Positions 4,903 through 63,195 are shown, counted from the stretch's first letter. The stretch: DNA of 64,000 nucleotides from a virus (IMGVR_UViG_3300042888_001115:11067-75066); one strand, 5' to 3'. A program made the numbers and translations. Notes: generated by a model not told the origin, from the sequence alone.

Positions 4903-4915
4903 CAAATATACGAAA
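4903..4915 (-). promoter_or_regulatory. promoter -7-like motif TTTCGTATATTTG
   Basis: Gene-sense TTTCGTATATTTG matches the Bacteroidota -7 consensus TAnnTTTG; member of the recurring motif class. Confidence 0.35.
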
Positions 4916-4925
4916 TATAACTCAG

Positions 4926-5306
4926 TTATCCAACTTTAATGGATACTTTTTTTGGTTTCTTTTCTTCTATCTTAGGTAAAGAGATATGTAATATACCATC
5001 TTTTACCGTTGCTAATGTAGCACTAAGGTCCCAATTAGTTCCAATGTTTAATGATTCATCAACCGGAAGTGCAATCGCATTCCAAATTTTATCATCGGTT
5101 TCTTTTTCTATTGATTTAACTTTAATAAAGCTTTCCTCAATTGTAATTTCTAATGTTTCCTTTGTTTGACCAGGAACTGCTAATCCAATTCGTAAGATAT
5201 CTTCGGTTATATCAACTACTACTTGTTTGTGGGTTGATGTAGCTGTTTTTGTTTTTGGTGTTTCGAAAAAATCTTCAAATAATTTGTTGTAATCTACTAA
5301 ATACAT
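4926..5306 (-). CDS. small heat-shock protein, Hsp20/alpha-crystallin family
   Basis: Alpha-crystallin domain pattern, GILHISLPK, C-terminal I-x-I/V tail (VSIKVG), 126 aa. Confidence 0.7.
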   Translation of the reverse strand: MYLVDYNKLFEDFFETPKTKTATSTHKQVVVDITEDILRIGLAVPGQTKETLEITIEESFIKVKSIEKETDDKIWNAIALPVDESLNIGTNWDLSATLATVKDGILHISLPKIEEKKPKKVSIKVG

Positions 5307-5381
5307 AATTTAATGTTTTTTTTGTTAATAATATTCTATATAGTTCAAATACTATACCATTGGGTTTAATCTGACAATTTG

Positions 5382-6056
5382 TTAGAATTTACCAACATTA
5401 AATGAAAATTTGTCATCTTTTACCGACTGTCTTTCAATTACCGTACTCATATGGTCTGCCCAATGCATAATATACTGAATATTTGATTTAAGATATTTTG
5501 ATGTATCATATACTTTATAATATTTTTCATTGTCCTCATCGTATAGACCATCCGTAAGTTTTATACCAAAATATTCATTCTCATTGATTGCAATACCATA
5601 TTGTGATAATGTAAATAATGTTCTATCAGTTATTGCCATAAAAGAGTTTTTTTCATTTCTTTTGTATAACTCACCTCTATTTTCAATATGCCATTTAGAA
5701 TCATTTGGTGCATAATGTAGTTCTTCTTTAGTACCCAATTTACCCAAATCATGATGTATTGCAACAAATAGTAATTCTTCTTCGGTGAAATCACATACTC
5801 CACCCGCTTCTTCAAATGTTTTTTTCATTTTTAATGCGTTCTTACATACATTAAAGATATGGTCAATATACCCACCCTCATATGCATTGTGATAGTTTTT
5901 ATTACCACTTGCAGGTGATACCATTAAGTTTCCACCTAATTCATCATCCGAGTACATAAACAAAAGTTTTTCTAATCTTTCGCCTGTAAAATATTTGTTA
6001 ACGATGGCTAGAAACTTATCGTAGTTCTGCTTTAATTCTGATTCTGTCTTTTTCAT
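5382..6056 (-). CDS. HD-domain phosphohydrolase
   Basis: VAIHHDLGKLGT (HD motif) with an upstream His (YIDHIF). Confidence 0.6.
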   Translation of the reverse strand: MKKTESELKQNYDKFLAIVNKYFTGERLEKLLFMYSDDELGGNLMVSPASGNKNYHNAYEGGYIDHIFNVCKNALKMKKTFEEAGGVCDFTEEELLFVAIHHDLGKLGTKEELHYAPNDSKWHIENRGELYKRNEKNSFMAITDRTLFTLSQYGIAINENEYFGIKLTDGLYDEDNEKYYKVYDTSKYLKSNIQYIMHWADHMSTVIERQSVKDDKFSFNVGKF

Positions 6057-6355
6057 TTTGTTAAATTTTCTTTTGTTAAGATTTTATATAAAAGTTCAAT
6101 TTCTTCTTCAGTTTCTAACATTGGTAAGTTATCAAATAGGGTTACCAAATATTCACCCTCATTCAAATCCATATTTTTCCACTCATCACTTGCTATTGAT
6201 ATTAACGTAGGTCTTTCACTTACATCATCATCTTCTTTTGGTAAAGGTAATATCCAATAATAAAAATCAGTTTCACCATCACTTTCTTCTATTCGTATCG
6301 CTCCCCATCTTTTAAAGGAATGGTCGGTAATCGGTGTTTGTGGCATTGTTATCAT
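6053..6355 (-). CDS. hypothetical acidic protein
   Basis: 100-aa ORF overlapping the upstream stop. Confidence 0.45.
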   Translation of the reverse strand: MITMPQTPITDHSFKRWGAIRIEESDGETDFYYWILPLPKEDDDVSERPTLISIASDEWKNMDLNEGEYLVTLFDNLPMLETEEEIELLYKILTKENLTK

Positions 6356-6379
6356 AACTCAAATATACAACTTTTTTTC

Positions 6380-6988
6380 CTAATCACAAATAATTCTAAT
6401 GGATTTTTGAATTGAATCTAGTTTAGAATTTGAAAATAAATTACTATTTGGGGTTTCAATTGTATATTTTGCTTTGCCTATAATTGTAATTGTATCACCT
6501 TTCATTTTATATATTGGTGCACCCATAGTATTTATTTCACCGGAAAAATATCCTAATTGTGATGTACTATTTACAATAGGAATTATTTGGTCTTGCTGTG
6601 AAACTAAAGAAGGTAGTTGTGATATTTGTAATTGACCTGTATATGGATTAAAATACGTTTTAACCACTCTACCAATCGTATCGCCGGCTTTTAATATCCA
6701 ATAGTGAGAACTACTCCATTCTATTCTACCATTAACCGGAGAAGGTGTTTTATTTGGTTTGCCATCTACTAAGAATTTACCGGTGATTCTACTTAACGTT
6801 TGGTTTGTTAGAGTAGATAACGATAAATGATAAAATCCATTATTATCCAATGGTAAACTTTGCTTACCATTTGAACTTAATGCAGAATCAATTGTAAATG
6901 TAATTGTGTGAGTTTGTGGTATTGGTGTAACTATATCTTTATTACACGCCATTAAAGCCATAATACCTAAAAAGGGTAAAATCTTCAT
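6380..6988 (-). CDS. lipoprotein
   Basis: Signal peptide MKILPFLGIMALMAC with lipobox Cys; preceded by a promoter motif 22 nt upstream. Confidence 0.5.
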   Translation of the reverse strand: MKILPFLGIMALMACNKDIVTPIPQTHTITFTIDSALSSNGKQSLPLDNNGFYHLSLSTLTNQTLSRITGKFLVDGKPNKTPSPVNGRIEWSSSHYWILKAGDTIGRVVKTYFNPYTGQLQISQLPSLVSQQDQIIPIVNSTSQLGYFSGEINTMGAPIYKMKGDTITIIGKAKYTIETPNSNLFSNSKLDSIQKSIRIICD

Positions 6989-7012
6989 ATCTTAGAGTTT
7001 AGTGTTTATACT

Positions 7013-7023
7013 TAAAGATACGA
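7013..7023 (-). promoter_or_regulatory. promoter -7-like motif GTCGTATCTTTAAGTATA
   Basis: Consensus motif about 22 nt upstream of the lipoprotein ATG; TTG about 20 nt further upstream. Confidence 0.4.
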
Positions 7024-7070
7024 CTTTTTTGTGGTTTTTCCAATTATTTGAGAGTATTTGGTATAAACAA

Positions 7071-7081
7071 TTGATTATCAA
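7071..7081 (-). promoter_or_regulatory. palindromic TTGATTATCAA site (weak copy of the upstream 20-mer)
   Basis: TTGATTATCAATTACTTA about 48 nt upstream of the promoter motif. Confidence 0.3.
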
Positions 7082-7085
7082 TTAC

Positions 7086-7523
7086 TTATAATTGTTCAAA
7101 TCCTAATTTTGTGAATACGTTTATTGACCGTATGTTCCAATCATCTATATTGGTTAATATGTTCGTATTGGTATAATTTTGTATAACATAAAATAACATA
7201 TCCGTTGCTCCATACATTCTACTATAATTTGTAGTTTTTATAAATACATTGTAAATATAATAAGTTGTAGAATCTATACATTTTAACCAACAATATCCAA
7301 CAATTTCACCTTTATAATAAGATACAAACATTTTATCACCCCGTTCAATCCTATCTTCTGCAGCTTGGAGATTAAACATACCATCCCAATTTATTTCAGA
7401 GTTGAATAAATCAATACAATATTGAATAATAGTATCATCTGATATTTCTACTATCTTAAAATCCGAATGAATATTACGTTGTATTAAATCTTCATATTTT
7501 AATTTATATTCTATCATACTCAA
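7086..7523 (-). CDS. GNAT-like acetyltransferase (tentative)
   Basis: About 145 aa, YYKGEIVGYCWL and C-terminal FTKLGFEQL resembling GNAT motifs A and B. Confidence 0.4.
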   Translation of the reverse strand: MSMIEYKLKYEDLIQRNIHSDFKIVEISDDTIIQYCIDLFNSEINWDGMFNLQAAEDRIERGDKMFVSYYKGEIVGYCWLKCIDSTTYYIYNVFIKTTNYSRMYGATDMLFYVIQNYTNTNILTNIDDWNIRSINVFTKLGFEQL

Positions 7524-7565
7524 CTCCTAAATAATTAAAATTTTTCGGATTTAATTTAAAATCAA

Positions 7566-8578: not shown

Positions 8579-8582
8579 ATGA

Positions 8583-12821: not shown

Positions 12822-12822
12822 T

Positions 12823-15247: not shown

Positions 15248-15309
15248 TATAGTATTTTTATGTTACTATAAAGATAGTGAAAAGAAATGGAATAAAAAAA
15301 TAAAATACT

Positions 15310-17890: not shown

Positions 17891-17901
17891 TCGTATTTTT
17901 G
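17891..17901 (+). promoter_or_regulatory. plus-strand copy of the promoter motif (TCGTATTTTTG)
   Basis: GTCGTATTTTTGA on the plus strand, an exact TAnnTTTG; would drive antisense transcription toward the histone-like gene. Confidence 0.2.
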
Positions 17902-17936
17902 ATATCACATTTTGTGACATCAAAATTTTGGGCATG

Positions 17937-19413: not shown

Positions 19414-19818
19414 TTAAGCCCAGTACATTATAAGGATATTCTCGACCTGCTTATTACCTAATCCCATCGCCTTCAATTCACGTTTAACCGATGGTATAAA
19501 TTTCTTATCAATCTGCCCGTAGCTCATAGGGTAGTCAGAAATGATACGAGTAATTTGAGCAGACTCTTTTTTCAACATACTAAAAAACGCACACGCCTTT
19601 AAAATTTCGGGTTTGTTTCTACATACTACCTTATGCATACGACCCATAAAATCCTTAAACATTACTATTGAATTAGGTTTTACCGCGTTACTCATTTTAG
19701 TAGCAGAAAAATTAACATAAACAGGTCTCTCGTTACGAGCAGTACTATAAGCTTTGTCAGTAAATTCATTTGTCATTTTGTTATTCATATATGATTTTTT
19801 TATAATGTGAGGAGTCAA
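19414..19818 (-). CDS. hypothetical protein (track start is TTG inside the conserved leader; likely true start MNNKMT at 19788)
   Basis: N-terminal MTPHIIKKSYM is encoded by leader-repeat copy C. Confidence 0.45.
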   Translation of the reverse strand: MTPHIIKKSYMNNKMTNEFTDKAYSTARNERPVYVNFSATKMSNAVKPNSIVMFKDFMGRMHKVVCRNKPEILKACAFFSMLKKESAQITRIISDYPMSYGQIDKKFIPSVKRELKAMGLGNKQVENILIMYWA

Positions 19819-19930
19819 ACCTTCGACTCAATACATAAAGATAACACTATTTCGTGGACTTTTAACACGTTTTAGGTACTATTTTAAAAATTCTTTATTG
19901 ACTATCAACGAGTTACGTCACCAAAAATGT
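19811..19930 (-). repeat. 120-nt promoter/leader module, copy C
   Basis: Contains ATCAACGAGTTACG, the TTATCTTTATGTATTGAGTCGA block and a GACTCCTCACATTATAAAAAAATCATATATG leader. Confidence 0.55.
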
Positions 19931-20450: not shown

Positions 20451-20567
20451 TTCGGTCAGTTTTAAAATAAACGGGTTAGGTGGTCGCTATTTTGAAGGGG
20501 TAAATATAAAGGGAGTAACCAAGCAACCATTTTAGAATAGTATTTATTCTGTCCTAACCCGTTATAA

Positions 20568-20580
20568 CTAAGATACGATA
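20568..20580 (-). promoter_or_regulatory. promoter-like motif TATCGTATCTTAG
   Basis: Variant of the consensus inside the 480-nt noncoding region. Confidence 0.25.
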
Positions 20581-20931
20581 ATTTATTTAATCTACCAAAT
20601 TATATTGAATCTTTTTGTGTGGGGTATGTGTGTAAAAATAGTCTCTAAAAAATTTTGCGGTCCGACTGAATGGATGGATAAGGTCTAAATGCCGTTGTGA
20701 TACCGATTGATTACACTCACACCTCTTTGTAACCCTTATGTGTGTTGAATTGTGGGGGTAAGTGGGTATAAGTGGGAAATTATTGTACGATGGACCTTAT
20801 TATTGCTCTATTCGGTATCAATATACGAATTTAGGGATATGATACACTATTCCATTTGATTTGATACGGTCTAATTAATAATACTTTCATTAAATAAAAT
20901 CTAATTTAAGTTAGATTTTTGGGAATATTAT

Positions 20932-23726: not shown

Positions 23727-24030
23727 CTTCGTCTTTTTTTATATTTGCAATTATACAATTCATATAATAGATTAGCCCTACGGGTGATATATCAATAGGG
23801 CGTATTAGGACCTCATATAATTTACCATTACGATTTGTTTTCATTCTATACATGCCCATTACTTCATCCTTATTCCTATCAAATGTAACGTACCATTGTG
23901 TTGATTTGTAATGGCCTACATTAGTTAGTACAAATTGATATTCGGTAGGGGCTTCAATTGCTTCATACACTTCCCACTTATCCGTTATTTGTTTGCCGTT
24001 AATTTTTTCTATGTTTCTTATCTTTAGCAT
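23713..24030 (-). CDS. MLTIxN-family small protein
   Basis: MLKIRNIEKINGK. Confidence 0.5.
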   Translation of the reverse strand: MLKIRNIEKINGKQITDKWEVYEAIEAPTEYQFVLTNVGHYKSTQWYVTFDRNKDEVMGMYRMKTNRNGKLYEVLIRPIDISPVGLIYYMNCIIANIKKDEDANT

Positions 24031-24031
24031 A

Positions 24032-24337
24032 TTATTTCATTATCATTATCATTTCAACCGCTCTTATAAAAGTTTGTTTATTACTTATTTGTTCTACCTT
24101 TAATAACATACTATTAATAGGAGTAGCTTCATTCCATATTATATAACCCTTATCCGTTTTAAATCTATTCAATACAATTTTAATATCACTATACGTTTTA
24201 TTTATATGTCTCAAATGAATATGATATTGTTCGTTACCCTCTTGATTCCAACTCCATGTGTTAAGTACATAATAAACTCCCGTACCACCATCAATTCTTT
24301 GATTGATTAGTGTAAACATATTTTCTATTGTAAGCAT
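24032..24337 (-). CDS. MLTIxN-family small protein (start trimmed to MLTIENM)
   Basis: Family motif at the internal Met. Confidence 0.45.
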   Translation of the reverse strand: MLTIENMFTLINQRIDGGTGVYYVLNTWSWNQEGNEQYHIHLRHINKTYSDIKIVLNRFKTDKGYIIWNEATPINSMLLKVEQISNKQTFIRAVEMIMIMK

Positions 24338-24385
24338 TGTATATATAGTTTTTACTATCAAAAAATTTAGGTAACGACACTTTTT

Positions 24386-24404
24386 CCCCCAACCCCCGCC
24401 CGCG
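24386..24404 (-). repeat. G/C-rich island (gene-sense CGCGGGCGGGGGTTGGGGGG)
   Basis: Followed in gene-sense by GTCGTTACCTAAATTTTTTGATAGT, as in the copy at 26557. Confidence 0.4.
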
Positions 24405-24728
24405 TTATTTACTGAAATTATTTAATTGTCCGCCTAACATTCCCGGAAACATTTTAAAAGATAATAAACCTTTTGTTAGTGTTACATAATCACTGCTTTG
24501 GTCATTATACATTCGCCATTCGTTTAATGTACTACTAAATTCGTTGTATCTTAATAGTTTAAAGTTTACATACTTTGGATGCTTTACACCAAATGTAGTA
24601 CCATAATCAAATCTTACTTTAATACTATAATCATGCTTTCGTTCCTCTATACTCATTACTACCCAATGTGCGTGTGGTGTATGTATTTTATTTCCTTCTA
24701 TCTTTTGTATGTTATCTATTGTTAGCAT
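24405..24728 (-). CDS. MLTIxN-family small protein
   Basis: MLTIDNIQKIEGN. Confidence 0.5.
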   Translation of the reverse strand: MLTIDNIQKIEGNKIHTPHAHWVVMSIEERKHDYSIKVRFDYGTTFGVKHPKYVNFKLLRYNEFSSTLNEWRMYNDQSSDYVTLTKGLLSFKMFPGMLGGQLNNFSK

Positions 24729-24740
24729 ATCATTTTTGTT

Positions 24741-25058: not shown

Positions 25059-25310
25059 TTATCTTTTTAAGAACCATTTACCAAATTTGAATATCATTTT
25101 GAAAATACCAATTATTAACAGCATAGGTATTATCACAGGCCAAAATATAGAGAATGCAGTAAATGCTTGTTCGTTACTTTCCCAATCATCATACCATCCA
25201 CCCTCACTTGCATATTTATCATAATCAAATCCAATTTTCACTCCAAAGTATTTGAAAAATGTTAGTGTTAAGAAAAATCCTATTATGTATATTGTTATTA
25301 TTGTTATCAT
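25059..25310 (-). CDS. small two-TM membrane protein
   Basis: Two hydrophobic helices flanking an acidic loop, 83 aa. Confidence 0.45.
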   Translation of the reverse strand: MITIITIYIIGFFLTLTFFKYFGVKIGFDYDKYASEGGWYDDWESNEQAFTAFSIFWPVIIPMLLIIGIFKMIFKFGKWFLKR

Positions 25311-25311
25311 A

Positions 25312-25437
25312 TTATTTCTTAGATTTTGATGCTTTAATCAATTTTGATGCTTTAATCAATAGTATTGTTATCCATACTACTGCCGTCAATACACATGCTA
25401 TTTCTACTATCAATGATATCGTTGCTATTGTTTTCAT
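25312..25437 (-). CDS. small single-TM peptide with LIKASK x2 repeat
   Basis: 41-aa ORF; ATG overlaps the uvdE stop (ATGA); repeat encoded by a 17-nt tandem duplication at 25322-25355. Confidence 0.3.
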   Translation of the reverse strand: MKTIATISLIVEIACVLTAVVWITILLIKASKLIKASKSKK

Positions 25438-26306: not shown

Positions 26307-26476
26307 ACTTTCTTTGTTTTTCGTTTGAGTAATTCAGTTTCTATTTTAGATATTCTACCTTCCATAGAATGTATTTTAAATCTATGTATGAAATTACCTA
26401 ATATTGTTTTAGGTATTCTAGCTTGCTCTGCAATCAATGATGCTTTCATTGCTCTTAGAATTTTTCTTAGTGCCAT
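26303..26476 (-). CDS. small protein, possibly HTH (start trimmed to MALRKIL)
   Basis: The track's N-terminal 17 aa (..IFRIFKYK..) are encoded by the promoter motif; real ATG lies 12 nt after the motif. Confidence 0.35.
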   Translation of the reverse strand: MALRKILRAMKASLIAEQARIPKTILGNFIHRFKIHSMEGRISKIETELLKRKTKKV

Positions 26477-26496: not shown

Positions 26497-26509
26497 TAAA
26501 GATACGAAA
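26497..26509 (-). promoter_or_regulatory. promoter -7-like motif TTTCGTATCTTTAAGTATAAAC
   Basis: 12 nt upstream of the trimmed ATG. Confidence 0.4.
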
Positions 26510-26556
26510 TATATATGAAACTATCAAAAAAAAATTAGGTTAAACGACCTTCGCTC

Positions 26557-26577
26557 AACCCCCGCCCCTTCCCCGCT
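26557..26577 (-). repeat. G/C-rich island (gene-sense GCGGGGAAGGGGCGGGGGTTG)
   Basis: Second copy of the GGGGGTTG...GTCGTT.ACCTAA.TTTTTTGATAGT element. Confidence 0.4.
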
Positions 26578-27052
26578 ACAATTGTTTTAGGTAATTGTTA
26601 CGATACAATTCTTTAAAGTATTGCTCAACACAATATATAAATGCATTTGCATTATCCATATCCTTTGGATGTATTGCATATGAAGGCATTAATGTATTCA
26701 AATCTAATTCTAAATGTAGTGAGTAATAAGGTTGTCCATCTTGATTATATTCTCTTTGTTTATCTAATATTAATCTACAACGATGGTTATATTCATATGA
26801 GTATAACTGAATTTCATAGTAATACGGGATTGATTTACTTTTATCTAATGTCTCACATACATTTTTAATCACATAATCAGTACCGGTTAAATGCACATCC
26901 AATATTCTTTTTACATTTCTTATTTCTAGCATATTATTTTGTTTTATCATTCGGTCATCAAACACACTCATATCACATACATCGCACCAGTCAGTATCAT
27001 CATAGTTAATTGGATTGTTGCATCTAATACAATCATGTACATTCATATCCAT
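26576..27052 (-). CDS. Zn-ribbon N-domain fused to MLxIxN-family domain
   Basis: CIRCNNP...CDVCD, then internal MLEIRNVKRILDV. Confidence 0.45.
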   Translation of the reverse strand: MDMNVHDCIRCNNPINYDDTDWCDVCDMSVFDDRMIKQNNMLEIRNVKRILDVHLTGTDYVIKNVCETLDKSKSIPYYYEIQLYSYEYNHRCRLILDKQREYNQDGQPYYSLHLELDLNTLMPSYAIHPKDMDNANAFIYCVEQYFKELYRNNYLKQL

Positions 27053-29911: not shown

Positions 29912-30122
29912 TTCGTTTTGTTTTATACAAAGATACTAAATGAATTATCAATATTGTACTATTCACCACTATAACCGGATTATCATTTCGTATAATTCCG
30001 TATGACATCCATAATACGCAACCAATTGAGTTTAATATTCTCAATAGTTTCATATTTTTAGATGTCATTGATATTAATGTAATGATTGTAGCTACATATC
30101 CTAATAATTCTATTACTTTCAT
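29892..30122 (-). CDS. small three-TM membrane protein (start trimmed to MKVIELL)
   Basis: The track's N-terminal FFRIFKYM is the promoter motif; ATG lies 5 nt after the motif, so the mRNA is probably leaderless. Confidence 0.4.
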   Translation of the reverse strand: MKVIELLGYVATIITLISMTSKNMKLLRILNSIGCVLWMSYGIIRNDNPVIVVNSTILIIHLVSLYKTKRNESMGM

Positions 30123-30127: not shown

Positions 30128-30140
30128 TAAAGATACGAAA
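30128..30140 (-). promoter_or_regulatory. promoter -7-like motif TTTTCGTATCTTTAAGTATATG
   Basis: Immediately upstream of the ATG. Confidence 0.4.
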
Positions 30141-30160
30141 AAATACCCATTTTACCAAAG

Positions 30161-32865: not shown

Positions 32866-32900
32866 AGTTTAAATATACAATAAGTTATCCATTATACCAA

Positions 32901-32932
32901 ACAAAAATAGGGGTATTTTTTAATTACCCCTA
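32901..32932 (-). terminator. intrinsic terminator
   Basis: Perfect 9-bp palindrome ATAGGGGTA-N9-TACCCCTAT followed in gene-sense by TTTTTGTTTGG. Confidence 0.5.
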
Positions 32933-37371: not shown

Positions 37372-38500
37372 TTAATTTATCTATTTCTAATATTGTATTT
37401 GTAGGATTAAAACTATCCATTATAAACTTATAATTCTTTTCTAATCTTTGTTGAACACTATCCGATTCATATATTGCCTTAACTTTATCAATTGATAATT
37501 CATTGATTCGTTTTAAAGCATCTACAAATAGTTCTATTCTTTGTGTTTCCGTTTTATTATCATCCCAACCAATTTCTAATCCAAATACATCTTCAAATGT
37601 TTCTATTCCATATTGTCTCAATGCTGAGTTAAATCCATTACATTGTAAAGATAAGAATATATTTTTACATAACCAAGATCTAATTGTTTTTTCTGTTAAT
37701 CTTAAATCATCCCCACTATCACCACTGCTCTCAATAGTAAATGAAATATATGAATCTAATGAGTTTGTATTGATACTATCATACATATCATTTGTATCTG
37801 AACTTTGTATTTGTCCTAATGCTACCGCATCTTTGTTCTCATATATAAAAAACTCATTTACAAATTGATTTAAGTATTCGATATCAATTACTAAATCATC
37901 ATTACCACTACGTCCCCCACCAGGTCTATTTCTATAATTAATAAAATCTTCTATTGTAGAGAGATTACCAAACGTATCTTTTTTTATTATATTACCAAAG
38001 GTATAATAACATTCGTTTAATTCAATACCTTTTTTTTTGAGCAATTCAAATATTTTAAGTCTTCGTAAATTTATAGACCTATTAAAGAAATTAAACTTCT
38101 TTGTTCTATTATTGTTTGGTATATATGCTACTTTTGAAAACAAGTTTGTAAATGGATAACATCTATTTTTAAATGATATATCATTTTCAATACTATACAC
38201 ATCTAAATGCGTTGTTAAGAAATATATAGTATGATTTGTATTTCTATTTTCTACAATTGCTTTACGCCTATGTTCATTACAATATTCATGTTTAATAAAC
38301 AAAAATATATTTAATTTTAAATTTGGATTTACTGATTCATTTATCTTATCGATTGTATCTAATGTAATAAATAATACATCATTATCTTTAAGATTATCAA
38401 TAAAACTAAAATCATTATATTGTAATTCTATAAGATTATACCCAATTGATTCAAAATATTTAAAGTCTAAACCATAAATAGAATCGTAATAAAATGTCAT
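37343..38500 (-). CDS. large paralogous family A protein (possible glycosyltransferase)
   Basis: C-terminal NGFNSALRQYGIETFEDVFG block like 15310 and 16497. Confidence 0.4.
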   Translation of the reverse strand: MTFYYDSIYGLDFKYFESIGYNLIELQYNDFSFIDNLKDNDVLFITLDTIDKINESVNPNLKLNIFLFIKHEYCNEHRRKAIVENRNTNHTIYFLTTHLDVYSIENDISFKNRCYPFTNLFSKVAYIPNNNRTKKFNFFNRSINLRRLKIFELLKKKGIELNECYYTFGNIIKKDTFGNLSTIEDFINYRNRPGGGRSGNDDLVIDIEYLNQFVNEFFIYENKDAVALGQIQSSDTNDMYDSINTNSLDSYISFTIESSGDSGDDLRLTEKTIRSWLCKNIFLSLQCNGFNSALRQYGIETFEDVFGLEIGWDDNKTETQRIELFVDALKRINELSIDKVKAIYESDSVQQRLEKNYKFIMDSFNPTNTILEIDKLIGYENNVFK

Positions 38501-41585: not shown

Positions 41586-41891
41586 TTATTTGTTTGTTAT
41601 TATATCGTAATCGTACACTATTTCATTTAAGAATTTAATAAAACTAAATGGGTCAACCAATGTTTTAGAATCTATATCATATCTAATTGATTTACCACCA
41701 TCTACTGCTAATCGTCCTTTAAATTTGTTTTTATCAAATTCATCTCTATCAAGTGTATATGAACAATCATTATCATAATTTTCATGTACAAAATTAAATC
41801 TATAAAAATCAGGTTCAGTTTGTATTTTCTTTATCTCAACCTGCATTGCATTGATTGGATATAACTTATCTATGTTTTTTATTGTTAGCAT
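41586..41891 (-). CDS. MLTIxN-family small protein
   Basis: MLTIKNIDKLYPI. Confidence 0.5.
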   Translation of the reverse strand: MLTIKNIDKLYPINAMQVEIKKIQTEPDFYRFNFVHENYDNDCSYTLDRDEFDKNKFKGRLAVDGGKSIRYDIDSKTLVDPFSFIKFLNEIVYDYDIITNK

Positions 41892-41892
41892 A

Positions 41893-42186
41893 TTATCTTA
41901 CTTTTATTGGTTTTCTATATTTTTCTATTAAATAAATTATATCCGATATCAGTATTGATTTATTTTCCACAATAGTATTGGAAATCTTAAAGTATTTTGT
42001 TGGACTATATCTTATACTATATTTACCCCCATCACGTTCTTTCATCAAGTCAATTCGGAAATATCTATTAATATCCGTATCTAAAACTGCAAATGAATAT
42101 GAATTGGTAAAATCCTTAACTGAATGTATTTTATATTTGCCCAGTACTTCACCTATTACTTTATCTATATTGTGTATCTTTAGCAT
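41893..42186 (-). CDS. MLTIxN-family small protein (start trimmed to MLKIHNIDKV)
   Basis: Internal Met abuts the ligase stop. Confidence 0.45.
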   Translation of the reverse strand: MLKIHNIDKVIGEVLGKYKIHSVKDFTNSYSFAVLDTDINRYFRIDLMKERDGGKYSIRYSPTKYFKISNTIVENKSILISDIIYLIEKYRKPIKVR

Positions 42187-42187
42187 A

Positions 42188-43327
42188 TTATTCGTATTCG
42201 TTTCTGTCAATATTAATTACATATGGAAAACGGGGTATACCATCAGGTGTTAAATTAAAATACTTAATCGTTGCTTGCTTACCGATTAGTTTCTTTTTAC
42301 TCTTTAACATCTCAGCCGTTTCATCCCAAGTTCCTTTTACATTTGATTTGAAAGGTTTACCATCAATCGTTTCAAATACCATATAACCAGCAGTTCCAGT
42401 TCTATTACCTTCACCCTCTACGATATCTAAAATAGTATATTCATCATCAACAAACGATTTATGTTTTAATAAGTTCTTACTTCGTTTGTTTTCATACTTA
42501 CCATTCGTTCTTAACATCTGACCTTCGTAACCTTTCTCTACATACCCACCATATAATTCCATAACTTCATCTTCATTATCAACTTTATATGTTTGTACTA
42601 TTCTACAATACTTACCTACTTGTGAAAATGTTTCAAATAGTATTCCTAAATCATACATTCTTTTTACAAAGTTATTATCTGAACTAGGTAAATCGTATAT
42701 GTGATACTCTATACTTTTTTCACTTTCAATTAAATCCTCTTTAGTTGGTTTTGTTTTTTTAACCAAAGATACAATCTTATTGAAATCATTAGCGAACTTA
42801 TCGGCATATAACTCACCATCTAATATCAAATCAGGATTCATTACAAATACATGCCATAAGCTATACATGATATGTTGCGCTGAAAGAATAGGTTTACCAT
42901 TTCTGCTAAACATACCATCTTTTGTCACTATACAACGAATACCATCTAACTTAGCTTGCGAATAAATTGGATATGTAACCTTATCTTTACTATCTTCCCA
43001 TTTAGCGGCTAACATTGGTTCAAAGTATTGTGTTTTGTTTATGTGTTTGATATTCTCAAAGTAACCACTCTCTAACTTCTTTGTTCGTTTAGCTACCGCC
43101 TCTGCCATCGTTTGTTCTTTATCCGTAGTTTCATTTGCTCTACCAATATTCTTACCATAACAAATTGTCCACTCATTCGTAGTAATAGCACCGCCAACTT
43201 GTCCACTATGGGTTCGGTATTTATTACCTACTACTTCAATTGTCCATTCTTGCGTTGCACCGGTCTTTGTTTTTTTGTAAATAGTTTCTAATTTCATATT
43301 ATAAATTTTTGTTATATTAGGAGTCAT
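42188..43327 (-). CDS. ATP-dependent DNA ligase (T7-type minimal ligase)
   Basis: EPMLAAKW...QAKLDGIRC (motif I KxDGxR), OB-fold C-terminal region, 379 aa. The first 11 codons (MTPNITKIYNM) lie in the triplicated leader, so an alternative start at 43294 (MKLETIY) is possible. Confidence 0.85.
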   Translation of the reverse strand: MTPNITKIYNMKLETIYKKTKTGATQEWTIEVVGNKYRTHSGQVGGAITTNEWTICYGKNIGRANETTDKEQTMAEAVAKRTKKLESGYFENIKHINKTQYFEPMLAAKWEDSKDKVTYPIYSQAKLDGIRCIVTKDGMFSRNGKPILSAQHIMYSLWHVFVMNPDLILDGELYADKFANDFNKIVSLVKKTKPTKEDLIESEKSIEYHIYDLPSSDNNFVKRMYDLGILFETFSQVGKYCRIVQTYKVDNEDEVMELYGGYVEKGYEGQMLRTNGKYENKRSKNLLKHKSFVDDEYTILDIVEGEGNRTGTAGYMVFETIDGKPFKSNVKGTWDETAEMLKSKKKLIGKQATIKYFNLTPDGIPRFPYVINIDRNEYE

Positions 43328-43344
43328 TCTCTCGACTCAATACA

Positions 43345-43355
43345 TAAAGATACGA
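43345..43355 (-). promoter_or_regulatory. promoter -7-like motif GTCGTATCTTTATGTATTG
   Basis: Inside copy A, about 28 nt upstream of the first ATG. Confidence 0.4.
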
Positions 43356-43410
43356 CTTTATATTGGATTGGCAATGCCCTAAGTGAACTAATTTTGAAAG
43401 TTTTTATTGG

Positions 43411-43426
43411 GAATCAACGAGTTACG
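43411..43426 (-). promoter_or_regulatory. upstream element ATCAACGAGTTACG (UAS-class motif)
   Basis: Member of the ATCAAYKRGTTASG family, about 60 nt upstream of the -7 motif. Confidence 0.4.
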
Positions 43427-43472: not shown

Positions 43473-43796
43473 TTATTTAAAATTATAGTTATCCAATTTT
43501 GCCAAACATTTAGTTATCATAACTGCCAAATCGGCTGCACTTCTAACATCTGAATTATCTATTTCGACTTCGGTAGCTGCTGCCCATCCCATAACATATA
43601 GTTTATAATTACCTTGTGGTTTTTTATCTCTGTCTAAATAAACTTCACAATCCGGTTTGCCCGCACCATCATCTTTAAATACAAATACATAAGAATCATA
43701 ATTCATTCTTTGATTATGTAGATTATAAAATTCTTTTATGGTTCGGCTATTACACGTATAACCAACCATTTTTTCTATGTTTTTTATTGTTAGCAT
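43473..43796 (-). CDS. MLTIxN-family small protein
   Basis: MLTIKNIEKMVGY. Confidence 0.5.
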   Translation of the reverse strand: MLTIKNIEKMVGYTCNSRTIKEFYNLHNQRMNYDSYVFVFKDDGAGKPDCEVYLDRDKKPQGNYKLYVMGWAAATEVEIDNSDVRSAADLAVMITKCLAKLDNYNFK

Positions 43797-43797
43797 G

Positions 43798-44073
43798 TTA
43801 TATTAATTCATCTATTAAAAATCGGATAAAGATATCTCTATCCCCTATACTCTCTATTGGTAGGTAGTGTCTATTACCTGTCTCTTGGCAATACATAAGA
43901 TAATCACCATTGGATGTCTTAACCCTACCAATGCTAAAGTTAAACATATCAAAGGGTGAGCCATTATGTACTACTTTAATAAGATAGTTATCCTTCGACT
44001 TAGTCACATAGTGTATCTTCCAATGGCCAACGTATGTCCCCGTAAGAGAATCTATGTTTTTTATTGTAAGCAT
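43798..44073 (-). CDS. MLTIxN-family small protein (start trimmed to MLTIKNIDSL)
   Basis: The track has a duplicated motif, MLNLKNYNMLTIKNIDSL; the internal Met abuts the upstream stop. Confidence 0.45.
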   Translation of the reverse strand: MLTIKNIDSLTGTYVGHWKIHYVTKSKDNYLIKVVHNGSPFDMFNFSIGRVKTSNGDYLMYCQETGNRHYLPIESIGDRDIFIRFLIDELI

Positions 44074-44074
44074 A

Positions 44075-44338
44075 TTATAATTTTTCAAGTTTAGCAATTA
44101 CATCCATTACATCTTCGGGTCTTAAATAACCAAGTACATCATTCGTAATCGGCGTATCGTAACATATTTCACCATCTTTGAAAATAGCTAATTCATACAA
44201 TCCGATATCACCACCATACGAGTGCGGACTTTGTACTACTGATACTTCATATCCATTATCTAATTTAGTTCTACTTACAATACCAAAATCAGCACCCATA
44301 GGGTTTGTTTTAAATTCAATATCTTTAAATGTTTTCAT
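44075..44338 (-). CDS. hypothetical protein
   Basis: 87-aa ORF. Confidence 0.4.
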   Translation of the reverse strand: MKTFKDIEFKTNPMGADFGIVSRTKLDNGYEVSVVQSPHSYGGDIGLYELAIFKDGEICYDTPITNDVLGYLRPEDVMDVIAKLEKL

Positions 44339-44391
44339 AATTTGTTTTATTTAATCTATAAAGGTAGTTAATTTTTCTGATACTACCAAAT

Positions 44392-52029: not shown

Positions 52030-52185
52030 TTATTTACTATCGTTATGTTTAAATACTATTTCAAACTTTCTATCTTCAATAGAAAAACTATCTAAAACGA
52101 TTTGTAATTGTTTAGAAAGATTATCTAATTTAGACTCATCCGTAAATTCAAACTCAATGTTGAACTGAAATGTTACATTACTCAT
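52030..52185 (-). CDS. small hypothetical protein (start trimmed to MSNVTFQ)
   Basis: The track's N-terminal MSPYITKIYNM is leader-repeat copy B. Confidence 0.35.
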   Translation of the reverse strand: MSNVTFQFNIEFEFTDESKLDNLSKQLQIVLDSFSIEDRKFEIVFKHNDSK

Positions 52186-52233
52186 ATTATAAATTTTTGT
52201 TATATAAGGACTCATTCTCTCGACTCAATACAT

Positions 52234-52244
52234 AAAGGTACGAC
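52234..52244 (-). promoter_or_regulatory. promoter -7-like motif GTCGTACCTTTATGTATTG
   Basis: Inside copy B. Confidence 0.35.
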
Positions 52245-52308
52245 TTTATATTGGACTTTGAACAGTCAAAGGTAACTATTTTTAGGTTTTTCAAAGATTT
52301 TTGACTGA

Positions 52309-52324
52309 CTATCAATGAGTTACA
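52309..52324 (-). promoter_or_regulatory. upstream element ATCAATGAGTTACA (UAS-class motif)
   Basis: Family ATCAAYKRGTTASG. Confidence 0.35.
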
Positions 52325-52399
52325 TATATGATTTTTTTATATATGGGTAAAAAGGTGTAGACATAGATAACCCATTGAGAATCAATAAGTTATAACTCT

Positions 52400-52419
52400 T
52401 TGATAATCAATGGGTTAGG
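52400..52419 (-). promoter_or_regulatory. conserved 20-mer TTGATAATCAATGGGTTAGG with upstream imperfect inverted partner (52368-52389)
   Basis: One of three near-identical 20-mers; palindromic TTGATAATCAA core. Confidence 0.45.
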
Positions 52420-52475
52420 AATTTGAGTTATTATATTACATTTTTATATAATATCAACCCTTATTTTATGTATTA

Positions 52476-56082: not shown

Positions 56083-56407
56083 CTTTTAATCCTCTCTTTT
56101 TTATAAGTATATCCATAGATGCACTTTCGTTTTGTTTTATAATCGGTTTTAAACTATCATACAACCCATCCTTAAACACTTCATCCGTTCCCTTATCACT
56201 ATTTGCTACTGCCGTAGAAATGTGTGCAAATCGTTTTAATTTGTACGGAGAGAGTGGTACAATATGTTGTTTGAGACTTAGGGCTTTAGCATCCAGGTAC
56301 TCGAATAATTCCGAGTCGGTCATTTGTTTTAGTTCCTCGTCTGTCTTATTAAATTCCATACTCAAATATACTAATAAATAATGAATTAAAAAAATAAAGG
56401 GGAACAT
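56072..56407 (-). CDS. hypothetical protein with N-terminal TM
   Basis: 111-aa ORF. Confidence 0.4.
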   Translation of the reverse strand: MFPFIFLIHYLLVYLSMEFNKTDEELKQMTDSELFEYLDAKALSLKQHIVPLSPYKLKRFAHISTAVANSDKGTDEVFKDGLYDSLKPIIKQNESASMDILIKKRGLKDGI

Positions 56408-58277: not shown

Positions 58278-58300
58278 ACTTTTAAATTTTAGTGTTTATT

Positions 58301-58312
58301 AAATATACGAAA
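58301..58312 (-). promoter_or_regulatory. promoter -7-like motif TTTCGTATATTTAATA
   Basis: About 25 nt upstream of ATG 58277. Confidence 0.4.
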
Positions 58313-58331
58313 TATAATTGGATTTACCAAA

Positions 58332-58987: not shown

Positions 58988-59043
58988 TAGTTATTTAGGT
59001 ATAGTCGTTATGAGTATGTATAAAACTATACCCTCATAACATA

Positions 59044-60276: not shown

Positions 60277-60322
60277 AACTGAATTTTTAATGTTTATTGT
60301 TTAATTATTGTTTGATATATCA

Positions 60323-60335
60323 TAAAGATACGAAA
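60323..60335 (-). promoter_or_regulatory. promoter -7-like motif TTTCGTATCTTTATGATAT
   Basis: About 50 nt upstream of the cobS-like ATG. Confidence 0.4.
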
Positions 60336-60418
60336 TTCTGCCCACACTACCAAAACTATTTATAACCTATTGAATATCAACACATTATACACATCCATTT
60401 AGGGTAATGTATAACACA

Positions 60419-60438
60419 TTGATAATCAATTAGTTAAG
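60419..60438 (-). promoter_or_regulatory. conserved 20-mer TTGATAATCAATTAGTTAAG
   Basis: About 85 nt upstream of the promoter motif. Confidence 0.45.
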
Positions 60439-60451
60439 TTTTAGTGTGTTT

Positions 60452-62596
60452 TTACGCTTTTTTCATAAAAAGCTCATTCATTGTTTTAATGATAGGAACG
60501 ATTTGTTTAACATCAATAAAACGGCTGTCACTTCCGTACATTGTTTTAAAGTTGTCAGATGAACTACTATATGAACTGCCACCAACAAAGTAACTCATAA
60601 CTTGTATACCCATATCTTTGATTTGTCCTACCATTTTCTTAGTGTGTAACAAAGCGTTTCTACCACTATAAGAACATTGTTGATTTGAGAATGTTGGCTC
60701 ACCATCACATATGTTTAAGAAATAAGAATCCATATCTTTGTTGCTCTCTACAAAATGTTTAAGTATCGCTTGATAACATAAACCTTCAGGTGTTGTACCA
60801 TTGGCGTGTAATGCAGGAAACAATCTCTTAACTTTCTCAAACTTATCAAATCTACTATCATACGCAATACATATGTAAGGTTTATCACCCCACGTACCTC
60901 TGATAGAAACTTGTACATTTAAGTTACTTACCATTGATGCTGCTTTACAAATAGCAATTGTTACGGCTAATGTATCATCCCACACACTACCACTCATTGA
61001 ACCACTACCATCAATAGTAACGTGCAACATTACTTTCTTAAACCTATCTACTTCTTTGGTACTGAATACATTTACATAATCATATCCTAATGCTGCTACC
61101 ATTCTCTTATCAATTCTACCATTCTTTTGGCGTGGATTGATTGTTTCTCTTTCCTCACTACGAACTGCAATACGCTTACCTAAGATTGTACCCATTACGA
61201 TACCTCTTTGTAAAGTATCAGCATTCCAGTTATTCCATTTATCATTCCAAAAACTAGCGAAAGGGAACGAACTATCTTGCATCAATCCTTCGGTCATTTT
61301 CTTAGATACGATACATTGAACCGGTTGAATATATCCACCATTCTCTAATTTAGTATCACCTACGGATTGCATTTCAGTTCCACTCTCAGCCATTTGGTCT
61401 AAGGTTTCATCCTCTTTCTTAGTTAATCCTTTCTTTTTGATATTGTTATTAACGAAGTCCTTTTGCTTTTGGATTTGTTTATCCAATTGTTTCTTAGCAG
61501 TATCACTCATTAAATCTTTACCATTACCAGTTTGTGAAGCACCACTCGTAGAGTCACCTTTCTCACCCATCACAGGTGCATCACCACCACTACCACCCAT
61601 TTCATCGTTTTGTTTATCACCTGCCTCTGCTCCAGTTTCATTACCTGCTTCGTTTACATCTGCAGGGTCACCATTACCCTTACCTTTACCATCTTTACTT
61701 AAATCAACTAAGATATGTTGTAAGATAGTGTTGGTAATCTTTTCTGCTACCTCTAATGAATCGGTTGTATTTTTTAATCTACTAATATTCTTAAGGTCTA
61801 ATGTTTCGTAGATTTCTTTCAAACCTTTCAATTTGTTAAGGTCAGTATTTTGATTTGTGATATTGATAATACGGAACATATACGATTGTAATGTTTCATC
61901 CGTATATTCATCACTTATCAATCCTTTGTCAATAGTCTTATCATAGAAATACTCATCATACAATGCTCTATAATAGTCTCTATAACCTGGACAAGTATTG
62001 TAGATATATTGGTCAATCCTTCTATCCTCTACAAAGTTTACCAATGATTTAACTACATCAAATAATTGTTCTTTGTTTCGATAATGTTGTGTACCATCAA
62101 AAGAAGGGTCATTTACATCTAAACCCGCTGCTTTTGCAAAGTTATTAAACATTTCGGTTGGTGCAGAATAAGCAGGCATTAATTCAAAGTCCGTAAGAAC
62201 AATGTGTGATGCTTCGTGCAATGCCAAACCTACCGCGATATCAAACTTTTCAGGTTTAACCTCAGCTGATAATACTACCGATTTACCATCAGTATAAGAA
62301 TCACCTTTACGCGAAAACTTTACAGGAATGTTTTTGTTTGTAAGAATGTTCACAAAGTTAGCAATTGCTCTCCTATGTGCATTCAACTTAATAAGGTCAG
62401 CAGTACTGCTTTCTACCTTATTGTACTCTTTTGGTTTCCAAGTATCACCACCCCAATATGTAGTAGGTGTGTCATAGGAACTCCATTCATCAGCCCAAAA
62501 TGAACTCGCTGATTTTTTCTCTTTCTTTTTACTAGTGTACGAACCTTTAGTTAAATAATCTAAAGTACCCGTCTTAAAACTGTCATACCAACTCAT
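60452..62596 (-). CDS. cobT: CobT-like protein with C-terminal VWA domain
   Basis: VTIDGSGSMSG MIDAS (DxSxS), central acidic/Gly-rich linker, 714 aa, adjacent to the AAA+ partner. Confidence 0.6.
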   Translation of the reverse strand: MSWYDSFKTGTLDYLTKGSYTSKKKEKKSASSFWADEWSSYDTPTTYWGGDTWKPKEYNKVESSTADLIKLNAHRRAIANFVNILTNKNIPVKFSRKGDSYTDGKSVVLSAEVKPEKFDIAVGLALHEASHIVLTDFELMPAYSAPTEMFNNFAKAAGLDVNDPSFDGTQHYRNKEQLFDVVKSLVNFVEDRRIDQYIYNTCPGYRDYYRALYDEYFYDKTIDKGLISDEYTDETLQSYMFRIINITNQNTDLNKLKGLKEIYETLDLKNISRLKNTTDSLEVAEKITNTILQHILVDLSKDGKGKGNGDPADVNEAGNETGAEAGDKQNDEMGGSGGDAPVMGEKGDSTSGASQTGNGKDLMSDTAKKQLDKQIQKQKDFVNNNIKKKGLTKKEDETLDQMAESGTEMQSVGDTKLENGGYIQPVQCIVSKKMTEGLMQDSSFPFASFWNDKWNNWNADTLQRGIVMGTILGKRIAVRSEERETINPRQKNGRIDKRMVAALGYDYVNVFSTKEVDRFKKVMLHVTIDGSGSMSGSVWDDTLAVTIAICKAASMVSNLNVQVSIRGTWGDKPYICIAYDSRFDKFEKVKRLFPALHANGTTPEGLCYQAILKHFVESNKDMDSYFLNICDGEPTFSNQQCSYSGRNALLHTKKMVGQIKDMGIQVMSYFVGGSSYSSSSDNFKTMYGSDSRFIDVKQIVPIIKTMNELFMKKA

Positions 62597-62632
62597 ACTC
62601 TTTAAGTTTATATGTGAATAAATATTGTTAGA

Positions 62633-62678
62633 AGATAGTAGGGGAATCGAACCCCTACCATGTTTCCAAAACTATCTT
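62633..62678 (-). ncRNA. tRNA-like minihelix (T-arm + acceptor stem, no D or anticodon arms)
   Basis: Minus-strand AGATAGT-TT-TGGAAACATGG-T-AGGGG-TTCGATT-CCCCT-ACTATCT: canonical T-loop TTCGATT in a 5-bp GC stem, flanked by a perfect 7-bp acceptor-like stem; no full cloverleaf could be folded. Confidence 0.3.
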
Positions 62679-62915
62679 AGTTTATCTGCGAATTAAGCAG
62701 AAATCTTAGCTCTACTAGCTAATTGTTGTAATCTTTGAGAATAGTACAACGCTCTACTTGTGTAGTAAGTACGCTTTTGCTCACTACTTGTAGTGTTTGC
62801 ATTTGTTAAAGCTTCTGTCAATTGATTCGTGATAAATTCGAACTTTGATTTTAAAGTAACCATTTTGTGTTTTCCAGTTTTTTATGTGGTGGCTCCACGT
62901 TTATTAAAAAAATCT

Positions 62916-63185
62916 TTAATTGCTTTTCATACCTTTACATACCCCATATCCTTGTCTTTGTGATAATCTATATAATCGTGCAGCATCTGCAGCAGGCATA
63001 ATTTGTATTTCGTTACCCGTCTTATGATTTGCTATTGCAACCCCACCAACTTTTTCTACCGAACTACAATTGATACAATTTCGATATCCGTATTTTTCAT
63101 ATCTAAGTTGCGGCATATCGTTTTTACATTTAATACATTTAATCATTAATAACTTACCCATAATTATTATTGTTTGATGAAACAT
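62916..63185 (-). CDS. C4 zinc-finger small protein (possible DksA/TraR-type); start uncertain
   Basis: CIKCKN...CINCSS; the track's N-terminal YRIFM is encoded by the promoter motif, so the start is at 63185 or 63161. Confidence 0.4.
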   Translation of the reverse strand: MFHQTIIIMGKLLMIKCIKCKNDMPQLRYEKYGYRNCINCSSVEKVGGVAIANHKTGNEIQIMPAADAARLYRLSQRQGYGVCKGMKSN

Positions 63186-63195
63186 AAAGATACGA
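63185..63195 (-). promoter_or_regulatory. promoter -7-like motif TTATCGTATCTTTATG
   Basis: Consensus motif. Confidence 0.4.

Follow-up and report, generated by a model that had tools for sequence, protein, structure and literature searches.

A recurrent intergenic motif of an uncultured phage is most likely the -7 half of Bacteroidota-type sigma-A promoters

The consensus promoter of Bacteroidota consists of TTTG at -33 and TAnnTTTG at -7 (PMC7366714, PMC9723704); for the sigma-ABfr consensus, PMC7366714 cites Bayley 2000. In the sigma-A geometry, the -7 box reads T-12 A-11 T-8 T-7 T-6 G-5 with no G at -10/-9 (TAHHTTTG) and transcription starts 4–5 nucleotides (nt) past it, while start regions of Flavobacterium johnsoniae have no Shine-Dalgarno (SD) sequence and are A-rich upstream (PMC6847099). 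Leaderless or nearly leaderless messages have been counted in two species: 3.7% of the 5′ untranslated regions of Bacteroides thetaiotaomicron are shorter than 10 nt (PMC7366714), and in F. psychrophilum leaderless messages make up 5.5% of mRNAs (PMC9723704). Bacteroides phage promoters have already been predicted from -7/-33 TTTG elements, e.g. in Bf12P1 (PMC13139388), and a Bacteroides phage promoter, P_BfP1E6, is active in uninfected Bacteroides, where the strong native P_rpoD and P_rRNA reach at most about 20% of its activity (10.1101/2025.03.18.644028). Here we analyzed a 64,000-nt stretch of viral DNA, IMGVR_UViG_3300042888_001115:11067-75066 (the window), in which an earlier note, made from the sequence alone, had picked out a recurrent motif upstream of minus-strand genes and likened it to the Bacteroidota -7 element. 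We consider that this motif is most likely the -7 half of complete Bacteroidota-type sigma-A promoters, probably read by the primary sigma factor of the host together with the host RNA polymerase (RNAP).

The motif or a variant of it is present on the minus strand at all 12 coordinates that had been listed. The exact 11-mer TCGTATCTTTA occurs at 7013, 26497, 30128, 32287, 43345, 60323 and 63185, and the same 11-mer with one mismatch at 52233 and 58300; the boxes at 4903 (TCGTATATTTG), 19836 (TGTTATCTTTA) and 20568 (TCGTATCTTAG) are variants. Alignment of the sites revealed a second conserved box, TTTGG, exactly 16 nt upstream of TCG; the earlier note had seen the downstream half only. The full element is TTTGG-N16-TCG-TAT(C/A)TTT(A/G), that is, TTTG-N20-TAnnTTT. 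We mapped 17 candidate promoters (Table 1), including weaker variants and variants without a -33 box, all of them on the gene strand and all between called genes. The proposed match to the sigma-A -7 element was borne out, as TA occupies -12/-11 and G is absent from -10/-9 in 17 of 17 sites, and TTT occupies -8 to -6 in 16 of 17, the exception being promoter 20575 with TTA. The -33 box is an exact TTTG at N20 in nine sites and at N19 in one, and reads TTGG or ATTG in three. Promoters of the sigma-70 type (TTGACA-N16-18-TATAAT) were not enriched in the window (97 versus 120.7 expected; 131 versus 152 expected).

The window is about 30% GC with negative GC skew throughout. It holds about 125 tightly packed open reading frames (ORFs), essentially all on the minus strand, which leave 6.5% of the sequence intergenic. 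An 18-mer form of the motif, allowing up to 3 mismatches, matched 8 times against 0.92 expected, a count that 0 of 100 shuffles reached, and the 11-mer, allowing up to 1 mismatch, matched 13 times against 3.06 expected. In an unbiased scan of 3181 k-mers, CGTATCTT topped the intergenic enrichment among 8-mers: its sense-strand copies were intergenic in 8 of 8 cases (binomial p = 3e-10), with a single antisense copy. We also trained a weight matrix on viral contigs that share no 30-mer with the window; it gave 13 sense matches (12 intergenic) at 10 bits or more, 1 antisense match and 0 in Markov-1 simulations. Within the window the motif is non-random, with a bias to the sense strand and to intergenic DNA. 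For its distance from start codons 5–50 nt had been proposed; the gap between box and ATG is 3–47 nt at 16 sites, and 20568 is 117 nt from the next ORF. The motif also explains, as had been suspected, the spurious RIFKY/RIFM peptides at the N-termini of three ORFs, and several gene starts could be corrected whose earlier calls lay upstream of the true ATG, inside a promoter or terminator.

Relatives of the window, both near-identical and divergent, are present in metagenomic and IMG/VR contigs (designated here by L and a number). Six orthologous promoter pairs showed 91% identity at core positions against 67% elsewhere (Fisher p = 6e-5), a difference to be read with the ascertainment bias of sites partly found by motif scanning in mind. 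Downstream of the 714-amino-acid (aa) gene, whose protein is 73% identical in relatives, TTTGG and TCGTA(T/A)CTT are kept while the spacer drifts, and orthologs of the 290-aa gene (63–68% protein identity) retain TTTGG-N16-TCG-TATATTTG upstream. The ortholog of the 63185 site in L009 keeps TTTGG/TCG/TAACTTTG; the gene in the window does not begin at the ATG that overlaps this box. For the 60323 promoter, L007, L009 and L011 keep the -33 box and TCGTA. In L009–L011 the triplet before TA varies (CAG, ACG/ATG, GTG, TCG, TTG, TAA) while TTTGG and TAnnTTT are fixed, so TCG is a preference and not a requirement.

The translation signals of the window point in the same direction. Start codons are preceded by A-rich sequence (66–75% A at -11/-12 within an A-rich stretch spanning -11 to -13, and 59% A at -3), and the absence of SD sequences asserted earlier was upheld, SD-like motifs preceding 10 of 125 genes against 11.3 ± 3.2 in controls. 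The lack of SD enrichment and the A-rich positions fit a Bacteroidota host, and such a host is strongly indicated for the phage.

The same element occurs in cellular genomes. We scanned 185,579 species genomes for TTTGG-N13-TTTTCGTATCTTTA, a pattern with 19 specified bases, and found it in 94 genome stretches, about 65 of them Bacteroidota and some at 45–58% GC; judged by the length of the pattern and the size of the database, chance would account for only a handful. The carriers include Bacteroidales (45–58% GC), Flavobacterium, Myroides, Apibacter, Hymenobacter and Sphingobacteriaceae, and the exact motif stands upstream of genes for EngA/Der, SSB, AdoHcy hydrolase, an EF-G-like GTPase, PSP1 and GH97. 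Since these are ordinary cellular genes, unmodified host RNAP in uninfected cells evidently meets this sequence. The idea that these cellular sites near contig ends are rRNA-operon promoters was dropped: Rfam on 18 loci gave no 16S or 23S downstream, only tRNAs and one 5S elsewhere.

A side observation from the cellular scan concerns about 22 genomes of Solirubrobacteraceae (Actinobacteria, ~70% GC). They carry TTTGGGATTT…TTTTCGTATCTTTA at a conserved position, about 70–80 nt upstream of a conserved protein (MPIAFKEWAVTVRALAEGEQL…), as an AT-rich island that is identical to the Bacteroidota pattern although the phylum is unrelated.

A scan of IMG/VR for TTTGG-N16-TCGTATCTTTA yielded at least 120 loci, the source of our viral-locus statistics. 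Nearly all of the loci listed are 30–37% GC, with the motif intergenic and, after it, (C/T)AT(A/G)TAA, an A-rich leader and then the ATG. In the listed phage loci, TCG occupied -15 to -13 in 41% of the non-seed promoters (T 79%, C 52%, G 70%), together with either TTTA or the canonical TTTG box. Written out over 32 nt, the resulting super-consensus is (A-rich)-TTTGG-N13-TTT-TCG-TATCTTTA. TCG looks like the mark of a phage-favoured super-consensus, perhaps an extended -7 element. Of the phage-specific subclass suggested in the earlier note, this enrichment in phage promoters survives; the phage sigma factor or modified RNAP offered as its reader is not supported.

We propose that a host primary sigma factor of the sigma-ABfr type, with host RNAP, is recruited at the -33 and -7 boxes. 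A-rich upstream DNA, TTTGG, a T-rich spacer end, T-15 C-14 G-13 and TAT(C/A)TTT would together make a near-optimal promoter. TCG sits where the extended -10 TGn of sigma-70 lies and probably adds a sigma contact that strengthens the promoter. Its presence upstream of cellular genes suggests that host RNAP would read this variant efficiently; we do not claim TCG as a general host preference. From these promoters, successive transcription units on one and the same strand would be expressed, in a region rich in accessory, probably early genes. At four of them (26504, 30135, 32877 and 56370) an intrinsic terminator lies immediately upstream and its T-run extends into the -33 box, so that terminator and promoter form compact cassettes.

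Besides the ascertainment bias mentioned above, several points weigh against assigning these sites to host sigma-A. At -5, G is near-invariant in F. johnsoniae, whereas the window has A at 12 and G at 4 of 17 sites; the related viral loci have 66% G and 34% A. Because the TTTA form also stands upstream of cellular genes, A at -5 is a tolerated variant and does not exclude sigma-A. No recognisable -33 box is found at four sites; a good one is missing from class B promoters 52240, 19843 and 43352 (partial), and also from 15276 and 56370, which have a terminator T-run in its place. TCG was not enriched in generic candidate host promoters (3.8% versus 2.4% in coding controls; n = 53, a small sample). 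CGT at -14 to -12 resembles the -10 'CGT' of extracytoplasmic function (ECF) sigma promoters, as in SM6 (PMC9723704). A phage sigma factor could be encoded outside the 64-kb window of a larger genome. Finally, the viral loci behind the weight matrix and the distance counts had been selected for the motif and are not independent lineages, 17 being directly similar to the window and 84 of the 120 listed chained by similarity, with 26 clusters in all.

The spacing between box and start codon singles out a group of genes. As the start site in Flavobacterium lies 4–5 nt past the box, genes with an ATG 3–5 nt past it would be leaderless. Two leaderless starts had been named: 30122 stands as a candidate, its ATG lying 5 nt past the box, whereas the 20 nt at 26476 predict a 15–16-nt leader. 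Beyond these, 32865 (4 nt), 6355 (4 nt) and 56359 (3 nt) are further candidates. The short spacing is kept in relatives for three genes. The spacing at 30122 is the same in L226, where homology of the protein begins at the first Met. For 32865, L226 has a gap of 4 nt with other spacer bases, L227 and L228 (69% aa identity) have one of 3 nt, and the N-terminus is kept. At 56359, the 3-nt gap and the N-terminus are kept in L007, L008, L010 and L011, and the upstream ATG called earlier for this gene falls inside the terminator hairpin. We propose that 30122, 32865, 6355 and 56359 are translated from leaderless mRNAs, and that the other genes behind these promoters would have A-rich leaders of 9–45 nt without an SD sequence.

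The same division recurs in the listed viral loci, where the box-to-ATG distance is bimodal over 206 promoter–ORF pairs: 24 lie at 4 nt and 6 at 5 nt, none at 0–3 nt and almost none at 6–13 nt, and a broad peak covers 14–40 nt. Such a distribution would be expected if transcription began at the AUG for about 15% of these promoters, an estimate from spacing alone on related contigs. It suggests that these phages rely on leaderless translation more than their hosts do.

One viral locus deserves mention beside these counts. In IMGVR_UViG_3300042451_001197, five promoters within 5 kb are all TATCTTTG-(T/G)(A/G)TT-ATG, with the ATG exactly 4 nt past the box; it would be a run of leaderless small genes.

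A second architecture, class B, comprises promoters 52240, 43352, 19843 and, more loosely, 7020, none with a good -33 box. Three of them lie in cassettes of about 100–130 nt that are 67–85% identical and share AAAGTCCA...AAAGTCG-TA(T/C)CTTTA, a conserved leader, TGTATTGAGTCGAGAGAATGACTCC, and a start codon 47 nt past the box. The genes behind the cassettes are one of 124 aa, the DNA ligase gene, and a 51-aa ORF with a GP88-like gene after it; in two of the three cases ORF callers place the start at an ATG within the leader. In L062, the ortholog of promoter 52240 has the full TTTGG box. A leader hairpin (GAGTC...GACTC) was considered; with no compensatory change and a central mismatch in one copy, no structure is claimed. 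Upstream of promoters 63192, 60330, 52240, 43352, 19843 and 7020, at 50–170 nt (61–75 nt in class B), are nine intergenic copies of a palindrome, TAAC-NN-ATTGAT-N-ATCAAT-NN-GTTA, which gave 10 sense matches against 2.7 in simulations and is kept in L009, L011, L062 and L079. Its variable dinucleotides are non-complementary, so a protein-binding site is more likely than an RNA hairpin, and the palindrome looks like an operator or activator site for a DNA-binding protein. Class B, with its conserved upstream segment and palindrome, may depend on such a factor; that the palindrome defines a factor-dependent promoter tier is speculation.

Promoter-early stem-loop (PeSL) elements are reportedly known from T4-type phages through work of Arbiol et al. 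in 2010. Could the repeats of the window be mainly recombination cassettes of this kind, serving to shuffle small accessory genes and acting as promoters only incidentally or in addition? Their placement between small ORFan and accessory genes, the resemblance among the three class B cassettes and the hairpin or palindrome adjoining the promoter would all suit such a role. Moreover, L227 has a near-identical 32-nt promoter, the counterpart of 30128, before a different gene, with a flanking protein only 51% identical, and the ligase gene that has a promoter in the window has none in L104; the cassettes thus coincide with variable gene slots. Most copies, however, share only the functional core of about 32 nt without extended homology, and conservation is concentrated at the sigma-A contact positions, which fits selection for promoter function. 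We regard a mainly recombinational role as rather doubtful, although it is compatible with recognition by host sigma-A.

A reading by a phage sigma factor, or by a phage-modified or appropriated host RNAP, would make the TCG sites a phage-specific class. The frequency of TCG in phage promoters, set against about 4% in generic host candidates, speaks for it, as do the loss of G at -5 in most window sites and the class B promoters, which lack a -33 box and share an upstream block and palindrome, in a logic resembling that of activator-dependent or appropriated promoters. Yet no Sigma70 or RNAP Pfam domain (E ≤ 0.01) was among the matches listed for the 125 window ORFs, 25 of 28 families being listed for one third of these ORFs. 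The identical extended motif precedes housekeeping genes in the cellular Bacteroidota stretches, close relatives replace TCG and keep the sigma-A core fixed, and TCG combines with TTTA and TTTG boxes alike. Precedent also weighs against it, P_BfP1E6 out-performing native promoters in uninfected cells (10.1101/2025.03.18.644028) and Bacteroides phage promoters being routinely predicted from -7/-33 elements (PMC13139388). On this evidence, a phage-specific reader is unlikely.

The same element could also be parsed as an ECF-type sigma promoter with its -35 at TTTGG and its -10 at CGTA. CGT does lie 17 nt downstream of TTTGG, and CGT near -10 marks ECF promoters such as SM6 of F. psychrophilum (PMC9723704). 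But the -35 AAC signature is absent from every strong site, the upstream box being the sigma-A TTTGG; conservation of the TTT in TAnnTTT matches that of CGT, which an ECF -10 would not explain; and sites without CG (44366, 32877, 6367, 56370) share the remaining architecture, so this parsing is very improbable. An accident of AT-rich intergenic composition, to which a loose TTTG-N17-22-TAnnTTTN pattern might point by being more frequent on the T-rich antisense strand (37 matches versus 18 sense), is refuted by the shuffles, k-mer scan and weight matrix, the specific motif being strand-specific, intergenic, fixed in spacing and kept in relatives.

Returning to recognition by host sigma-A, these sites belong to an element type already described, here in a phage lineage that is new; novelty is limited to the super-consensus, the apparent excess of leaderless genes, and the class B architecture with its palindrome. 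A combined picture, which we put forward tentatively as a possibility with more against it than for it, would take TCG as an undescribed 'extended -7' element that lets phages out-compete host promoters, have some 15–20% of such phage promoters fire at the AUG, and make class B with its palindrome a factor-dependent second tier, by a logic like that of T4 middle promoters. The map gives 17 candidate transcription-unit starts for an uncultured, otherwise unannotatable phage region. The super-consensus, the spike of box-to-AUG distances at 4–5 nt and the cellular recurrence in Bacteroidales, Flavobacteriales and Cytophagales reach beyond this phage and may be of use for promoter prediction and for the design of strong synthetic promoters in Bacteroidota. 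The current view of transcription in the phylum is unchanged.

Table 1. Candidate promoters and other elements of the window. Promoters are named by a position inside the given range; bits, score by the weight matrix from viral contigs; gap, nt between -7 box and ATG.
Name	Coordinates	Strand	Class	Sequence	Bits	ATG	Gap	Remarks
63192	63185..63216	-	A	TTTGG-N16-TCG-TATCTTTA	38.5	63161 (likely)	23	
60330	60323..60354	-	A		35.1	60276	46	AAA+ MoxR-like ATPase gene
	58300..58331	-	A	TCG-TATATTTA	36.1	58277	22	615-aa gene
56370	56363..56394	-		TATATTTG		56359	3	directly after terminator hairpin; candidate leaderless, 95 aa, MEFNKTDEEL
52240	52233..52264	-	B	AAAGTCG-TACCTTTA, no TTTG at -33		52185	47	conserved leader
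44366	44359..44390	-	A, without TCG	TTTGG-N16-AAC-TACCTTTA	27.0	44338	20	
43352	43345..43376	-	B			43297 (likely)	47	ATP-dependent DNA ligase gene
32877	32870..32901	-	A	TTG-TATATTTA	26.1	32865	4	directly after terminator; candidate leaderless, 67 aa
	32287..32318	-	A		38.3	32272	14	kept in L226
30135	30128..30159	-	A		34.3	30122	5	directly after terminator; candidate leaderless, 76 aa
26504	26497..26528	-	A	TTTGA at -33	32.3	26476	20	after terminator; 290-aa gene
20575	20568..20599	-	A	deviant box TATCTTAG	23.8			precedes structured ORF-free stretch, no start codon
19843	19836..19867	-	B	TGT-TATCTTTA, no TTTG at -33		19788	47	
15276	15269..15300	-	weak candidate	CAC-TATCTTTA, TTTTT at -33	13.8	15247	21	
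7020	7013..7044	-	B-like	ATTGG at -33, AAAGTCG-TATCTTTA	18.4	6988	24	
6367	6360..6390	-	candidate	TTTG-N19-TATATTTG		6355	4	possible leaderless, 100 aa; start unconfirmed by relatives
4910	4903..4934	-	candidate	GTTGG at -33, TCG-TATATTTG	25.9			
Class B cassettes	19785-19886, 43294-43395, 52182-52283							
Palindrome copies	63286-63314, 60411-60439, ~60363-60387, 52392-52420, 52367-52395, ~52298-52322, ~43400-43424, ~19891-19915, ~7064-7088							
Terminator-like hairpin	4874-4902			AAAGGTAGTC-ACAAA-GACTACCTTTTTTT		4873		at promoter 4910
Match inside 385-aa gene	37646-37677	-		CTTGG-N16-TCT-TATCTTTA	20.9			
Candidate small RNA	20464-20563	-						in ORF-free gap 20451-20931
tRNA-like minihelix	62631-62678	-		…GGTAGGGGTTCGATTCCCCTAC…				
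AATAATATGCTAACAATAAAAAACATAGAAAA family	24002-24038, 24700-24736, 25282-25318, 26904-26940, 41863-41899, 42158-42194, 43768-43804, 44051-44087			…AATAATATGCTAACAATAAAAAACATAGAAAA…				
G-rich repeat	26520-26576, 24354-24404	-		GGGGCGGGGGTTG…GTCGTT(T)AACCTAA, then T-run and TTTGATAGT				
Separate palindrome	17897-17925	-		TGTCACA-AAA-TGTGATA		17873		before 458-aa gene

Two sites of the map need comment. At promoter 4910 the minus-strand hairpin lies directly 3′ of the box and is followed by the ATG, so that the predicted start site is at the 5′ edge of the hairpin stem; this reverses the usual order of terminator then promoter, and the arrangement is ambiguous. The match that falls within the 385-aa gene, some 280 nt ahead of the following gene, may reflect an internal promoter or chance.

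Most window proteins have no family, and the recognisable ones have accessory functions: an ATP-dependent DNA ligase, an AAA+ MoxR-like ATPase, UvdE, NifU, an epimerase, Hsp20, a SET domain, a 2OG-Fe(II) oxygenase and Band 7. Searches of the ten largest proteins against PHROGs and Pfam identified only the DNA ligase, the AAA+ ATPase and an FG-GAP protein, and megablast of a 20-kb stretch of the window against an annotated phage collection gave no nucleotide match. Among the relatives is a contig of 238 kb, which makes a large uncultured phage the probable source of the window. No RNA genes were called in the window by ARAGORN or by Rfam at gathering thresholds.

Several further elements were seen in passing. 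Promoter 20575 is followed, in a 481-nt ORF-free gap, by a stretch of about 100 nt with a long closing stem and a terminal T-run, whose predicted fold (minimum free energy -28.3 kcal/mol, z = -4.1) makes it a candidate phage small RNA; Rfam gave no match in this gap and a permissive search only a chance scaRNA match, and the sole relative found is 95% identical and uninformative on covariation. Two large phage contigs, IMGVR_UViG_3300042448_001702 (160 kb) and IMGVR_UViG_3300025392_000640 (101 kb), have three tandem full promoters 100–150 nt apart, each followed by a short ORF-poor stretch; these may be small-RNA arrays. The tRNA-like acceptor-stem and T-arm minihelix, flanked by complementary AAGATAG/CTATCTT, could be a tRNA remnant or an attachment-site-like fragment; ARAGORN calls no tRNA there. 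A family of genes of about 100 aa, paralogous ORFans with near-identical N-termini and upstream sequence, has a conserved 5′ end (gene strand). One copy of the G-rich repeat, 26520-26576, is the terminator before promoter 26504, and the other has no -7 box. The separate palindrome lies between a terminator and the 458-aa gene, in an intergenic region without a -33/-7 promoter.

How do these promoters compare with those already described? Literature searches on promoters of crAss-like or Flavobacterium phages and on cryo-electron microscopy of the Bacteroidota holoenzyme returned nothing relevant, and the comparison is with the following systems. Bacteroidota sigma-A promoters share with the window sites the two boxes, the 20-nt spacer, TA and TTT, the exclusion of G from -10/-9, the intergenic sense-strand placement and the A-rich, SD-less leaders. 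The phage sites differ in having mostly A at -5 and four members without a -33 box, and in an extra conserved G after TTTG, the T-15 C-14 G-13 triplet and a T-rich spacer end; conservation of their -33 box is far stronger than that reported for F. johnsoniae. Phage promoters P_BfP1E6 and Bf12P1 are alike in using the host -33/-7 consensus, lying between genes and standing ahead of co-expressed gene blocks. They are stronger than native promoters, as those of the window would be. The window phage belongs to a different, uncultured lineage of about 30% GC. As in Bacteroidota leaderless mRNAs, the AUG of the candidate genes is at the expected start-site position, 4–5 nt past the -7 box; the apparent share of such genes, as judged from spacing, is higher than in Bacteroidota hosts, at 3–4 of 17 in the window and about 15% of the 206 listed viral pairs. 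With PeSL elements the window cassettes have in common repeated modules of hairpin and promoter between small accessory genes in one transcription direction, whereas host system and sequence differ and a role of the cassettes in recombination is only putative. Extended -10 (TGn) promoters and phage T4 early promoters are known in E. coli. The window promoters resemble these in having an extra conserved element just upstream of T-12 A-11 and a phage consensus longer than that of the host; they differ from the extended -10 in that the element, which may contact sigma region 3.0, is TCG at -15 to -13 and not TG at -15/-14.

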